DNA of 64,000 nucleotides from an uncultured archaeon (GTDB lineage Archaea > Asgardarchaeota > Lokiarchaeia > Sigyniarchaeales > SOKP01). The stretch spans positions 1 to 64,000 of the forward strand of contig CAZOYD010000008.1 of the NCBI GenBank assembly GCA_964583985.1, written 5' to 3'. A model generated the notes under the pieces. The model did not search any database. It saw only the letters and a list, made by a program, of their open reading frames with translations, and was not told the origin of the DNA. Below, in pieces: positions 42,596 through 54,373 of the stretch; the first letter of the stretch is position 1; each line of letters starts with the position of its first letter. A program made the translations under genes and the position numbers.

Positions 42596-43210
42596 CTACC
42601 AGATTGAAAAATCTTTTTCTTTTGAGAAATCCCTCTTTAAGGGTTTTCCCGTAATTAAGGTGAGGTATCTAATATATGCAGATTGTTCTGCGCCTGTTAC
42701 GTATTGTAACGCGTCTTCTAAAGTCATTCCTTTAGCAAAAATCCCATGACCACGTACTACTACAAAAGGATAATTTTTTAATATTTTTGGTACTTCAATT
42801 GAGGTATAATATGCTCCCGCGGGTATTTTTACATCAATAATCGGTATTTTTTTGTATAATGCAAAACCTTCGGCGTCAATACACGTTATTTCATCTTCGA
42901 TTAACGAAAGAGCTACACAATAAGGATTATGTGCATGAATTACTGCCATTGCATCTGTTTCTAAATAAATTGCTCGATGAACTCCAAGTTCAGTACTAGC
43001 AATAAGTGATCCAGAATCTTCTTCTTTTAAATCACAAATTACTAAATCCTCTGGCTCCAGATTACCAAGCATTGCTGCTCTTCTTTTTATAATAATCTTA
43101 CCACCTGACTTTATTGAAATATTACCAGAATGGCTAGTATTATATCCATGTCTAACTAAATGCTCTCCAATCTTCTTAAACATATTATAAATAGACTCGT
43201 CTATAATCAT
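42596..43210 (-). CDS. Class II (Zn) aldolase, FucA/adducin family; predicted rhamnulose-1-phosphate aldolase by context
   Basis: SGNIS, STELGVHRAIY, IHAH, RGHG. Last gene of the rhaA-aor operon. Confidence 0.85.
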   Translation of the reverse strand: MIIDESIYNMFKKIGEHLVRHGYNTSHSGNISIKSGGKIIIKRRAAMLGNLEPEDLVICDLKEEDSGSLIASTELGVHRAIYLETDAMAVIHAHNPYCVALSLIEDEITCIDAEGFALYKKIPIIDVKIPAGAYYTSIEVPKILKNYPFVVVRGHGIFAKGMTLEDALQYVTGAEQSAYIRYLTLITGKPLKRDFSKEKDFSIW

Positions 43211-43228
43211 GAGTTTCTCATATATTTT

Positions 43229-45022
43229 CTATAATTTAAAGTCAATTTCAAGATTTTTAATTAATTCCTTTTTAGGAACTCCTTCCTTATCCCAACCTCG
43301 TACAAAATAATATTGCTCTAACATGGATTCTAATGGTATTATATGACCCTTTGAAGCCCCTTCTTTTAGGGGTTCATTAAGAAACCTTGAAGGTAATGTA
43401 TCATCATTTTTTGTAAAACCTTCTCTAATGTTAAACAGTCTTTCTAAATTATATATACGTTCTCCTATTTGAGTTAACCTAATAACATCAAACTCAATAC
43501 CAGTAATAGCTTTTAAGAAACGTGCATAATAATCAAGCCCTAATGCCCAACCTGCGAATGTGCAAATAACCAAACTATCTTCAATTGCTTTCTGATTTTG
43601 TTTTAATACTAGCAAATCAGGTTTCCCTGCTGTTGTAAACCTATCAATTTTTTTTGGGGCGGCAAATATCTCTAAGGATGCCATATATCCAGTAAGATGA
43701 CATCCACCTCTATTGGAAGTGGCATATCCTAACGCATGCCCGATAGCACCTCTTGGATCATATGCGGGGAGTTCCAATCCTTTAACTTGCATAGCTATCT
43801 CTTCATTTTTATATCTCTTTGCTAATAATCTGGATCCTTCCCCAATTTGAGCTCCAATACCTTCTTTCTTAGCAATTTTTTCGACAATATTTTTTAGCAT
43901 AATTGTGTTACCAAATTTTAAAGAAAGATCGTTCAAGAACCCTTTTTCATTTAATTCCATTCCGCATGAGATACTACCACCGCAAGATATTGTATCAATT
44001 CCAAATTTATTGCATAAATAATTTGCCTGAGTTATCGTAATTAGGTCATATATACCTAAATTTGGACCAAGCGCCCAGACAGATTCATATTCTGGTCCTT
44101 TTCCCTGCATATCACCTGCTTTAGTTAATCTTCCGCATCTTATAGGGCAAGCATAACATCCTTCTCTCTCTTGTGTCAATTTCTTATTTATCTCTTCTCC
44201 ACTTACTAAGCTAGCTCTCTCATCAAAACCTTTTTGAAAATTATTAATAGGAAACATACCCAATATATTAATCACATTAACTAAAGCAGAAGTTCCAAAT
44301 TTCGGAAGTGAAGATCGAGTTATAGGAACCACTTTAATCTTATCTTGAGCGACTTCTACATACTTTTTCAACAATTCTTGATTATCAATATCAAATTTAG
44401 CATCACCACCTTTTACCACGATAGCTTTAAGGTTTTTAGACCCCATTACTGCTCCAACGCCTCCTCTTCCAAATGCTCTAGTTGCATCATTTATTATTGC
44501 TGCTATCTTAATTAAATTCTCACCTGCAGGGCCAATCATAAGGGAATTAATTTTATTACCTTCAATCTTTTTTAATTCTTCTAAAGTCTTCTCAGTGTCG
44601 TATCCCCATAATTTAGAACCATCCTTTAATTCTGGTCCTTTTCCACCTTCTATTAAAAGATATCCTGGCTCTTTCAATCCCCCCTGAATTAAAATACCAT
44701 CATACCCACATCTTTTCATTACAACGCCAAAGGATCCCCCTGAATTAGAAAAAAATATCCCATTGGTTAAGGGTGATTTTGTGACTAACGAAAAGCGTCC
44801 ATTTGTCGGAATTATAGTTCCTCCAAACGGTCCCGTTGTAAATATCAATAAATTCTTTGGATCTAAGGGATCAATATTAGCTGGAATTCTTTCCGATAAT
44901 AATTTAACGCCTATCCCCCTACCTCCAATAAAATTTTCTAATACCTCTTCCGATAATAAGATTTCACTAATTTTTTCTTGATCGAGGTTTATTTCAAGAA
45001 TTTTGTTATTCAATCCTTTCAT
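43229..45022 (-). CDS. aor: Aldehyde:ferredoxin oxidoreductase (W/Mo bis-pterin AOR family)
   Basis: FIGGRG, TKSPLT, IGPAGE, GRGGVGAVMGSKNLKA, CYACPIRC, GPEYE, PAYDPR, RGGCH, DSLVIC, ERLFN. Confidence 0.95.
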   Translation of the reverse strand: MKGLNNKILEINLDQEKISEILLSEEVLENFIGGRGIGVKLLSERIPANIDPLDPKNLLIFTTGPFGGTIIPTNGRFSLVTKSPLTNGIFFSNSGGSFGVVMKRCGYDGILIQGGLKEPGYLLIEGGKGPELKDGSKLWGYDTEKTLEELKKIEGNKINSLMIGPAGENLIKIAAIINDATRAFGRGGVGAVMGSKNLKAIVVKGGDAKFDIDNQELLKKYVEVAQDKIKVVPITRSSLPKFGTSALVNVINILGMFPINNFQKGFDERASLVSGEEINKKLTQEREGCYACPIRCGRLTKAGDMQGKGPEYESVWALGPNLGIYDLITITQANYLCNKFGIDTISCGGSISCGMELNEKGFLNDLSLKFGNTIMLKNIVEKIAKKEGIGAQIGEGSRLLAKRYKNEEIAMQVKGLELPAYDPRGAIGHALGYATSNRGGCHLTGYMASLEIFAAPKKIDRFTTAGKPDLLVLKQNQKAIEDSLVICTFAGWALGLDYYARFLKAITGIEFDVIRLTQIGERIYNLERLFNIREGFTKNDDTLPSRFLNEPLKEGASKGHIIPLESMLEQYYFVRGWDKEGVPKKELIKNLEIDFKL

Positions 45023-52845: not shown

Positions 52846-52870
52846 TAACTCTCTTTTTTTTTTATTCTTA

Positions 52871-54373
52871 TTATAATTGATAATCCGTACTCATGAATTT
52901 TATAAATTTATGATATGCCTTTATCCACCTTGTGATATCTTCAGGATAAAAGTTTTTGATAGAAAAAGAGCGAATTACAATACGTCTTAAATCTTCAAGT
53001 CGGTTAATTAATCCTACTGCTTTTGCTTGAATTAATATATTACCAATAGCAGTAGCTTCGGTTGGTCCTGCTTTAATTGGAATATTCAGAGCATTTGCTG
53101 TAAATTGATTTAATAATTGATTAGAAGATCCTCCTCCTATAATATGTAAGATCTTGACCTTTTTTTCAGTAATTTTTTCCAATTCGTCAATTACTTGCTT
53201 GTATCTAAGTGCTAAACTTTCAAATATTACTCTGGCAATATCGCCTATCGATATTGGAGGGATCTGATCACTCATTTCGCAAAATTCTTGTATCGCCTCG
53301 TTCATATTAGGAGGATTATGAAAGAGATGATGATCTGGGTTTATAAAGCATTGGAATGGTTGTGCTTCCGCTGCCTTCAATTCAATTTCCTCCCAAGTAT
53401 GGCATAACCCTTGCTTTTCCCATTCCTTTTTACATTCTTGAATTATCCATAATCCAGTCACATTTTTTAAGAATCTTATTGTATTTTCAACACCACCTTC
53501 GTTTGTAAAGTTAAACTCAAGTGATTTGGCGTTTATGATTGGTTTATTCAATTCAACACCTAAAAGACTCCACGTTCCGGAACTTAGATAGGACCATTCT
53601 CCACTTTCGTACCTTTCCATTTCAACAGGAACTGCCGCTATTGCAGAAGCGGTATCATGGCAAGCAGGAGCGATTATATTAGTATCCTGATTTATGCCAA
53701 CTTCATGAATAATTTCTTTTCTTAGCACTCCTATCAGTGTTCCTGAAGGAACAATTTTTTGGAACAATCTTGATTTTAAACCCAACATTTTTATCAATAT
53801 TTGAGACCAATCACGCGTGTTTAGATTGATTAATTGAGAAGTAGTAGCAATTGAATATTCAGAGCATTTTTTTCCGCATAATAAATAATTTAAATAATCA
53901 GGGATCATCAGAAGTGTTTCAGATCTCGCTAATTGTTTAGAATCGTGGTAAATGAGAGAAAATAACTGAGTAGAAGTATTTATTTCCATGAATTGGATAC
54001 CGGTAAGCTTGAATATCTCTTCTTTAGGCACCTTCTCAAACATGAAGTTAAGCATTCCTTTAGTTCTTGAATCTCTATAGTGATAAATAGGTTCAACAAG
54101 TTGATCATTTTTGTCTAATAAACCAAAATCCACACCCCAAGTATCAATTCCTATGCCAAAAACCGTCTTTCCATATTTAATTACATATCTTTTAAAGCCA
54201 TTTAAGATTTCATTATAAATAGCTGCGATATCCCAAAGAAGGGAACCATCTTTTATAATTCCCCCATTAGGAAATCGATATATCTCATCTAAAGCAAGTT
54301 TGTTGTCATTTAGAGTACCTACAATGGCTCTTCCCGTGCTAGCTCCAATATCAAACGCTAAAAACCGTTTCAA
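52871..54373 (-). CDS. rhaB: Rhamnulokinase (FGGY family)
   Basis: AFDIGASTGR, IYRFPN, GIDTWGVDFGLL, YRDSRT, TGIQFM, HDTASA, SSGTWSL, FTNEGG, LKNVTGLW, GPTEATAIGN. TTG start with AGGAGG SD. Confidence 0.95.
   Translation of the reverse strand: MKRFLAFDIGASTGRAIVGTLNDNKLALDEIYRFPNGGIIKDGSLLWDIAAIYNEILNGFKRYVIKYGKTVFGIGIDTWGVDFGLLDKNDQLVEPIYHYRDSRTKGMLNFMFEKVPKEEIFKLTGIQFMEINTSTQLFSLIYHDSKQLARSETLLMIPDYLNYLLCGKKCSEYSIATTSQLINLNTRDWSQILIKMLGLKSRLFQKIVPSGTLIGVLRKEIIHEVGINQDTNIIAPACHDTASAIAAVPVEMERYESGEWSYLSSGTWSLLGVELNKPIINAKSLEFNFTNEGGVENTIRFLKNVTGLWIIQECKKEWEKQGLCHTWEEIELKAAEAQPFQCFINPDHHLFHNPPNMNEAIQEFCEMSDQIPPISIGDIARVIFESLALRYKQVIDELEKITEKKVKILHIIGGGSSNQLLNQFTANALNIPIKAGPTEATAIGNILIQAKAVGLINRLEDLRRIVIRSFSIKNFYPEDITRWIKAYHKFIKFMSTDYQL

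Follow-up and report, generated by a model that had tools for sequence, protein, structure and literature searches.

The 64-kb window analysed here, which covers positions 1-64,000 of an 85.9-kb contig (CAZOYD010000008.1) from an uncultured Lokiarchaeia archaeon, carries at positions 42596-54373 what is probably an Asgard rhamnoside-utilisation locus, that is, a phosphorylative route for L-rhamnose in which the lower half would be formed by a small class II aldolase and a tungsten-type aldehyde:ferredoxin oxidoreductase (AOR), with a mosaic origin and with each step assigned from homology and gene context. As a sugar locus it looks ordinary; its host is unusual, and its mosaic lower half is undescribed. 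Genomes, loci or contigs, families and genera are labelled G, L, f and g, respectively.

Gene content and predicted pathway

Pfam and NCBIfam profiles identified eight intact single open reading frames (ORFs) in this segment. The seven gene types named in a first-pass annotation of the window were all recovered in place as intact single ORFs, and that list was right as far as it went; it had left out the AOR at 43229-45022. The genes are the following:

42596..43210, minus strand: class II aldolase, small and FucA-like, 204 aa (PF00596, 109 bits); putative L-rhamnulose-1-phosphate (6-deoxyhexulose-1-phosphate) aldolase
43229..45022, minus strand: tungsten-type AOR (AFOR_N 240 bits, AFOR_C 447 bits); putative L-lactaldehyde:ferredoxin oxidoreductase
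45019..46302, minus strand: L-rhamnose isomerase RhaA, GTG start (NF002203, 643 bits, cut-off 572; TIGR01748, 589 bits, cut-off 585)
46329..49037, plus strand: GH78 alpha-L-rhamnosidase, predicted to be cytoplasmic (five GH78 Pfam domains); the likelier start is the ATG at 46347
49107..49877, plus strand: DeoR-family regulator (HTH_DeoR PF08220, 71 bits; DeoRC PF00455, 151 bits)
49908..51407, minus strand: type-B carboxylesterase (PF00135, 411 bits); its putative role, deacylation of acylated rhamnosides, is read from context only
51484..52845, plus strand: GPH-family (MFS_2) glycoside:cation symporter (PF13347, 171 bits; TIGR00792, 127 bits); putative rhamnoside importer
52871..54373, minus strand: RhaB-family FGGY kinase, rhamnulokinase-like (TIGR02627, 490 bits, cut-off 528; next best model FucK_coli, 155 bits)

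With a 4-bp overlap between rhaA and aor and a gap of 18 bp from aor to the aldolase gene downstream, these three genes are read here as one operon. In the proposed pathway, rhamnosides would be imported by the GPH symporter and L-rhamnose would be released by the cytoplasmic GH78 enzyme, perhaps aided by the esterase. RhaA would then convert L-rhamnose to L-rhamnulose, the RhaB-family kinase would phosphorylate it to L-rhamnulose-1-phosphate, and the small FucA-like aldolase would cleave this intermediate to dihydroxyacetone phosphate (DHAP), which would enter glycolysis, and L-lactaldehyde. The co-transcribed AOR is predicted to oxidise L-lactaldehyde to L-lactate with reduction of ferredoxin, and the aldolase and AOR together would thus stand in for RhaD and the NAD-dependent lactaldehyde enzymes. 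The energetics of the acid/aldehyde couple are established, and on this basis a syntrophic fermenter could use the reduced ferredoxin to make H2 or formate. The pathway had been proposed to end at DHAP plus L-lactaldehyde; with an AOR in the operon, it probably runs on past L-lactaldehyde.

Upper half of the proposed pathway

RhaA scores above both of its family cut-offs and aligns over its full length with Bacillus halodurans RhaA (3P14; 507 bits), with all metal-site blocks conserved. Active-site and metal-site residues are likewise conserved in the alignments of the AOR and the aldolase, which bears out the intact catalytic motifs reported earlier. The kinase belongs to the RhaB family, and where its nearest 120 clusters carry a name, the labels are archaeal only; the automatic NCBI label on such kinases reads 'rhamnulokinase [Candidatus Lokiarchaeota archaeon]'. 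Neither GH78 nor the esterase shows an N-terminal signal peptide or a transmembrane segment, and the suggested cytoplasmic cleavage of rhamnosides is therefore consistent with both proteins. Among the rhamnose loci of relatives, there are orthologues of the esterase (G023, G012 and G029) and of the GPH symporter (73-82 % identity). No RhaM mutarotase (PF05336) was detected in the window, as had been remarked before, and the search of the whole genome, which has a marker completeness of 100 %, was also negative.

The same genes travel together across Asgard genomes. Of 399 genomes, 39 have a strong RhaA match, 48 an aldolase orthologue and 54 a RhaB kinase; 31 have all three and 66 at least one of them, while GH78 occurs in 53, in the same lineages, all these counts being inflated by relatedness among the genomes. 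A comparison within a single genus, g22, in which the genes lie mostly on separate contigs, gives the same picture: the aldolase is present in 8/10 RhaA-positive and in 1/44 RhaA-negative genomes. Because this co-occurrence persists without physical linkage, it argues for functional coupling. Where the genes are linked, the arrangement is also kept: the rhaA-aor-aldolase trio is found in four other species of the genus of the window (identities of 72-77 % for RhaA, 78-83 % for AOR and 90-92 % for the aldolase), it is reordered within one locus in a fifth species (68, 71 and 92 %, respectively), and it is present in genus g17 at 60, 57 and 67 %.

The locus resides in an Asgard chromosome

The host genome contains an archaeal small-subunit (SSU) rRNA, a homologue of ESCRT-II/Vps25 and actin homologues (five full-length, 162-441 bits, and one fragment), and the record titles of its close relatives read Promethearchaeota or Lokiarchaeota archaeon, in agreement with the Asgard affiliation suggested at first reading. 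A chimera joining bacterial DNA at about 42.5 kb, or more generally bacterial DNA misassembled or misbinned into an Asgard metagenome-assembled genome (MAG), was the main artefact to consider, given that the contamination estimate of the MAG is 5.25 %, that the RhaA sequence is bacterial-like and that a few RhaA copies in Asgard bins, on very short contigs, group with bacterial clades (L017). The evidence from the contig itself makes such an origin extremely improbable. The whole 85.9-kb contig is free of Ns, every 4-kb chunk of it correlates with the tetranucleotide profile of the genome at 0.93-0.99, GC content is flat at about 0.33, and the same contig bears a PAC2 gene and a tRNA with an intron-like insert. 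The GH78-rhaA-aor stretch was found in three independent Logan assemblies, two of which run through the aldolase gene into hsp20, thus spanning the suspected junction, and one of which reaches the gene for a FAD-oxidoreductase. This FAD-oxidoreductase/aldolase neighbourhood recurs in four other genomes, so that the synteny looked for in other Lokiarchaeia is conserved across species. Moreover, orthologues are present in dozens of Asgard genomes; of the 12 loci examined within the order, one belongs to a closed chromosome and three to contigs of 78-125 kb, and on other Asgard contigs the aldolase-AOR pair is flanked by Arf/Ras GTPase and gelsolin genes. Since composition is continuous, independent assemblies cross the junction and synteny is shared, a chimera is excluded as far as sequence data go, and the locus is genuine and chromosomally resident in an Asgard (Promethearchaeota, Loki-type) genome.

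The tRNA (27371-27473, plus strand, 103 nt; Rfam, 49 bits) is extended in its D-arm region by some 30 nt, an insert that resembles an archaeal non-canonical intron; ARAGORN reported no tRNA in the window, and it was Rfam that picked this one up.

An aldolase paired with a tungsten-type AOR

The first-pass annotation had described the locus as a bacterial rhaBAD-type module, a description that does not hold for the aldolase. Against the RhaD model NF002963 it reaches 22 bits (cut-off 170), and RhaD-type enzymes have about 274 aa, FucA-type ones about 200-215 aa, versus 204 aa here. Among NCBIfam models it matches PRK08660 best (185 bits), a small FucA-like model of archaeal type. The closest structure is Thermus FucA (2FK5); the zinc and catalytic motifs (Glu, HxH and GHG) are kept, and residues E74, H92, H94 and H155 are invariant in the alignment (A2). 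By these sequence criteria the aldolase is FucA-like and not RhaD, and a transplanted rhaBAD can be set aside. A whole-genome search found the aldolase gene in single copy and no second class II aldolase, which leaves no other candidate for the cleavage step of a rhamnose pathway.

The AOR aligns end to end with the Pyrococcus furiosus AOR (1AOR; 551 bits), and the CxxCxxxC motif and distal Cys of the [4Fe-4S] cluster, the Glu block GPEYESVW and the His block NRGGCH are conserved. The genome encodes 12 other AOR paralogues, each at most 38 % identical to this one. Several of these (contigs C33, C77 and also C37 of this genome, G000) lie within a few kb of genes for iron-type alcohol dehydrogenases (Fe-ADH), and such neighbours may form acid-aldehyde-alcohol modules.

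Adjacency of the AOR and aldolase genes was observed in all 19 further Asgard loci in which both were recovered (families f1, f2, f4, f5, f6, f7 and f31), with or without rhaA nearby. Distant relatives of the aldolase (P0364 and P0397) have no AOR gene in their vicinity, and the pairing is therefore clade-specific. A predicted complex of the two proteins scored 0.10, against a mark of 0.32, a value that speaks neither for nor against substrate channelling between them. Outside the archaea, the nearest AORs (59-65 % identity) belong to Bacteroidota, in which one locus has the AOR-aldolase pair beside a RhaB-like kinase gene (47 %). In a Bacteroidales fucoidan or fucoside locus (L118:2350-13405), the pair is embedded among genes for two GH29 enzymes, a GH95 enzyme, a sulfatase-like protein and proteins with Por secretion tails. 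A metagenomic contig of 57.5 % GC (L171:986-10228) carries, all in the same direction, genes for DeoR, a FAD-linked oxidase (D-lactate-dehydrogenase-like), AOR, aldolase, FGGY kinase, FucI and RhaA, the AOR and the aldolase being 47 % and 40 % identical to those of the window; this operon has the layout of a complete dual fucose/rhamnose-to-pyruvate pathway. Distant AOR paralogues also adjoin RhaA genes in MAGs of Pirellulales and Spirochaetaceae. What these contexts share is L-lactaldehyde, the product of cleavage of both rhamnulose-1-phosphate and fuculose-1-phosphate, and we postulate on this ground that the AOR is a lactaldehyde:ferredoxin oxidoreductase.

Several observations weigh against a rhamnose pathway as drawn here. 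The kinase scores below the cut-off of its family model, and its best PDB match is a Streptococcus pneumoniae protein deposited as FucK (4C23, 333 bits), ahead of Escherichia coli RhaB (2CGJ, 303 bits). FucA and RhaD have opposite stereospecificity at C4, so that rhamnulose-1-phosphate is assigned as the substrate of the FucA-like aldolase from context, which would fit this compound or use of both. In two genomes of f31 (G331 and G333) the pair lies among housekeeping genes and neither RhaA nor RhaB was found, which indicates that the pair may have a wider or a different primary substrate. The genome also holds two aldehyde dehydrogenase (ALDH) and five Fe-ADH genes elsewhere, whose products are possible lactaldehyde handlers, and for a lactate-oxidising FAD/Fe-S oxidase such as those of L168 and L171 only partial GlcD-like matches were obtained in this genome.

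Part of this evidence would fit a more general role, in which kinase, aldolase and AOR form a trunk for 6-deoxy-ketohexoses at large, L-fucose or another deoxyhexose being as likely a substrate as L-rhamnose, perhaps alongside it, and RhaA being one of several interchangeable entry isomerases. Besides the FucA-like aldolase and the FucK-like structural match of the kinase, the Bacteroidales pair within a fucosidase locus and the operon in which FucI and RhaA share a single kinase, aldolase and AOR point in this direction. So do three genomes (G164, G165 and G167) that have the kinase, the AOR-aldolase pair and GH78 but no RhaA, one of them (G167) with FucI. We nevertheless consider this generalised role unlikely for the window, given that its entry enzymes are a RhaA above the equivalog cut-off and a GH78 rhamnosidase, that within genera the distribution of the pair closely matches that of RhaA, and that the only FucI-like gene of the genome matches the C-terminal domain alone and lies among glycosyltransferase and radical-SAM genes, a neighbourhood for which we rejected it as a fucose-catabolism gene; no canonical fucose pathway was thus detected in the genome. 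In G164, G165 and G167, lone RhaB-like kinase genes (46-49 % identity; contigs C124, C137 and C11, respectively) lie among ProRS, RPA and small-GTPase genes. Among carriers of the pair that lack RhaA, a RhaI-type isomerase gave a strong match only in G168 and weak ones (33-59 bits) in G162, G164, G165 and G167.

It could also be supposed that the main job of the pair lies elsewhere, in salvage of 5-deoxyribose or methylthioribose by a DHAP shunt, with the AOR acting on acetaldehyde, or in aldehyde detoxification, and that lactaldehyde goes to 1,2-propanediol or to NAD enzymes. Several lineages have the pair by itself amid housekeeping genes (in RhaA-less genomes, among genes for an Arf GTPase, H+-PPase, GCD14 and LeuRS), up to the f31 genomes mentioned above, and in L155 it is flanked by a radical-SAM gene; the Fe-ADH and ALDH genes would supply the other enzymes, and characterised AORs are broad-spectrum (PMC11725836). 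We judge this more doubtful still than a general deoxyhexose trunk, since the AOR is translationally coupled to rhaA in the window, four unrelated contexts have the pair next to rhamnose or fucose genes, and the aldolase is the sole cleavage-step candidate detected in the genome. A rhamnose pathway with the aldolase-AOR pair as its lower half is thus the reading we prefer.

Origin of the isomerase

RhaA was detected in 13/40 close relatives and in 41/399 Asgard genomes, nearly all of them from one order (30/133 genomes of f1, 4/14 of f2 and 4/4 of f4). An unrooted tree that included the 80 best loci found among 185,579 species genomes, obtained by a quick LG+G4 search, placed 32 Asgard RhaAs in one clade (SH-aLRT 98) nested among RhaAs of anaerobic bacteria, with a Bacteroidales sequence as sister (94) and Spirochaetota and Calditrichota next. 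Branching order inside the Asgard clade roughly tracks family and genus. RhaA is overwhelmingly bacterial, and for this reason we take the direction of transfer to be from bacteria to Asgard. The data fit a single old transfer followed by vertical descent and frequent loss. The proposal that the module had been acquired horizontally is thereby sustained for RhaA, in the form of an event that would be old and order-wide and not specific to this genome.

Stray RhaAs outside the main Asgard clade occur in G029, in G036 and on a 2.6-kb contig of G028. In two genomes the rhaA gene has in-frame stops or is cut to a remnant of 50 residues (G255:C14:84132-85382 and G244:C62:66858-67004), and pathway loss appears to be ongoing within the family. 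G096, from the distant Asgard family f16, has RhaA, aldolase (91 %) and RhaB of the type of the window on short contigs (C56, C89 and C211), as a result either of recent transfer between Asgard lineages or of mis-binning.

Origin of the AOR-aldolase pair

A different history is suggested for the pair. In a tree inferred with LG+C20+F+G4 and a careful search, rooted on six paralogues of this genome, the aldolase-linked AORs form a single clade (100/99) whose deep branches are, in succession, Asgard f4, f7, f6 and then f5 with f1. The AORs of Bacteroidota group in a single derived clade (98/98), which comes after four splits that are Asgard-only (three of them strongly supported), and in none of 200 bootstrap trees did a branch separate the Asgard AORs from all others. 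The aldolase gave a congruent tree. Because Bacteroidota are nested in Asgard diversity, passage of the pair from Asgard to Bacteroidota is the favoured direction. The two unlabelled sister groups of the AOR subclade of the window are probably also Asgard, since their contigs carry gelsolin or HcyBio genes. The pair in the genus of the window belongs to another subclade than the pair in g17, g21 and g22, genera of the same family, which points to replacement of the pair within Asgard.

The root of this clade is a point against the proposed direction: when L171 was added, it joined the base as a trichotomy that leaves the root unfixed, and the term Asgard-native holds only for the sampled clade. 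On the trees at hand the locus is an evolutionary mosaic, in which RhaA would have come once from anaerobic bacteria and the pair would have branched deeply in Asgard and reached Bacteroidota later. A broader proposal, which we offer as a possibility with somewhat less than even chances, is that the pair is a ferredoxin-linked lower trunk for rhamnose and fucose that diversified in Asgard, replaced RhaD or FucA and the NAD enzymes, turned toxic lactaldehyde into low-potential electrons for H2 or formate rather than into excreted propanediol, and was exported to Bacteroidota.

Regulation

A tblastn search of the genome gave a single match for the DeoR-family protein, so that no other member of this family was detected there. 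In G190 its 64 % orthologue is flanked by rhaA and rhaB; in L169 a homologue (41-42 %) is divergent from the AOR-aldolase genes. The palindrome RTTAT-N8-ATAAY occurs six times in the window, versus 1.8 +/- 1.4 expected, and 0.41 times per 10 kb genome-wide; half of the six sites fall in the rhaA/GH78, deoR-upstream and esterase/GPH spacers, which total about 190 bp, so that three of the four promoter spacers have one:

46308..46325, no strand: palindrome GTTAT-N8-ATAAC in the rhaA/GH78 divergent spacer (26-44 bp); candidate DeoR operator, overlapping TATA-like elements
49065..49082, no strand: palindrome GTTAT-N8-ATAAT, 25-42 bp upstream of deoR
51426..51443, no strand: palindrome ATTAT-N8-ATAAT in the esterase/GPH divergent spacer

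DeoR would probably repress the divergent promoters through this palindrome, and the earlier description of the module as regulated fits the deoR gene and the candidate sites. Three facts count against the assignment: the pattern was defined post hoc, it was not found upstream of rhaB and it is not conserved in the corresponding spacers of relatives. The data thus suggest a candidate operator only. The spacers bear TATA-like elements, and an unbiased k-mer search of five spacers recovered as shared words only TATA-like, AT-rich ones. A scan for sigma-70 promoters and terminators was discarded, as it gave 67 matches versus 62 +/- 7 in shuffled sequences, a background level, and is not meaningful for an archaeon.

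Neighbouring genes

The rhamnose block runs on into a glycoside island (54428-64000), which has genes for an amidase, a GH4 enzyme, a tandem ferritin-like protein, a GH32 and a GH2 enzyme, a second GH4 enzyme and a GFO/Idh/MocA protein. In G023, orthologues of GH4, GH32 and GH2 (65-84 %) are interspersed with the rhamnose genes, and in G011 and G015 a GH4 gene follows rhaB. On the other side, the spacer upstream of hsp20 (42364-42412) contains TTGACA/TGTCAA inverted repeats, as read in its sequence.

Significance and comparison with known systems

If the assignments hold, the locus would represent the first L-rhamnose route of the phosphorylative (isomerase-kinase-aldolase) kind attributed to archaea, and it would indicate that peptides are not the only food of sediment-dwelling Loki-type Asgard archaea, which would also use rhamnosides from algae or plants. 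Physiological substrates of the AOR family are mostly unclear, and one clade would gain a concrete role, the oxidation of L-lactaldehyde to L-lactate with ferredoxin. The locus would further exemplify gene exchange in both directions between Asgard and anaerobic bacteria inside one operon, with transfer of a catabolic module from archaeon to bacterium on top of the import of RhaA from bacteria, a point of relevance to the assembly of Asgard metabolism. All of the key proteins are of small size, soluble and amenable to assay. Our literature searches retrieved no paper joining Lokiarchaeota with rhamnose isomerase, or lactaldehyde with 'aldehyde ferredoxin oxidoreductase'; papers pairing Asgard or Lokiarchaeota with rhamnose were not relevant, and no published account of the locus was found.

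In E. coli, the phosphorylative rhamnose route consists of RhaA, RhaB and RhaD, with FucO or AldA acting on lactaldehyde. The Asgard locus resembles it in having a RhaA orthologue above cut-off and a RhaB-family kinase, and in the expected intermediates and cleavage products, DHAP and L-lactaldehyde. In contrast to E. coli, it has a 204-aa FucA-like aldolase instead of RhaD, no RhaM, DeoR instead of RhaS/RhaR and an archaeal host, and its lactaldehyde would be passed to a ferredoxin-linked tungsten AOR and not to NAD(H) enzymes.

Among archaea, Haloferax volcanii reportedly degrades L-rhamnose by an oxidative, non-phosphorylative route with a dehydrogenase, a lactonase and dehydratases. Substrate and archaeal host are the same as in the pathway proposed here, and marks of lateral transfer from bacteria are also shared, having been described for the Haloferax-type pathway (PMC12525153), whereas that route includes no isomerase, kinase or phosphorylated-ketose aldolase. 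For the Haloferax pathway, PMC12186497 cites Reinhardt et al. 2019 (PMID 30707467).

Variants of the bacterial pathway have been catalogued, including the RhaEW fusion, in an account without mention of ferredoxin or archaea (Rodionova et al. 2013, PMC3870299). RhaEW (YuxG; Bacillus, Chloroflexus; PMC3870299) is similar to the Asgard pair in that an aldolase other than RhaD is genetically tied to a lactaldehyde-removing enzyme, with lactate and DHAP as products. In RhaEW, however, the aldolase is fused to a short-chain NAD+ dehydrogenase, whereas the Asgard proteins are encoded by two ORFs with no short-chain dehydrogenase domain, and oxidation would be left to an unrelated AOR of the tungstopterin/[4Fe-4S] type, with ferredoxin as acceptor.

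That AORs might detoxify rhamnose-derived lactaldehyde was suggested, in one line, for Ca. Lernaellota MAGs (Williams et al. 2022, PMC9324843). The reaction is the same as the one postulated here, but that proposal was drawn from the finding that bacterial MAGs contain AOR genes, with no dedicated clade, pairing or archaeal case. WOR1 of Eubacterium limosum, a tungsten enzyme of the AOR superfamily, oxidises lactaldehyde among other aldehydes in vitro (PMC11725836), which demonstrates that lactaldehyde is a possible substrate for this superfamily, and P. furiosus AOR is homologous to the AOR of the window over its full length, with cluster and catalytic residues conserved. Both characterised enzymes are regarded as broad-range aldehyde scavengers without a dedicated pathway, unlike the clade of the window, which is fixed beside a sugar-phosphate aldolase.

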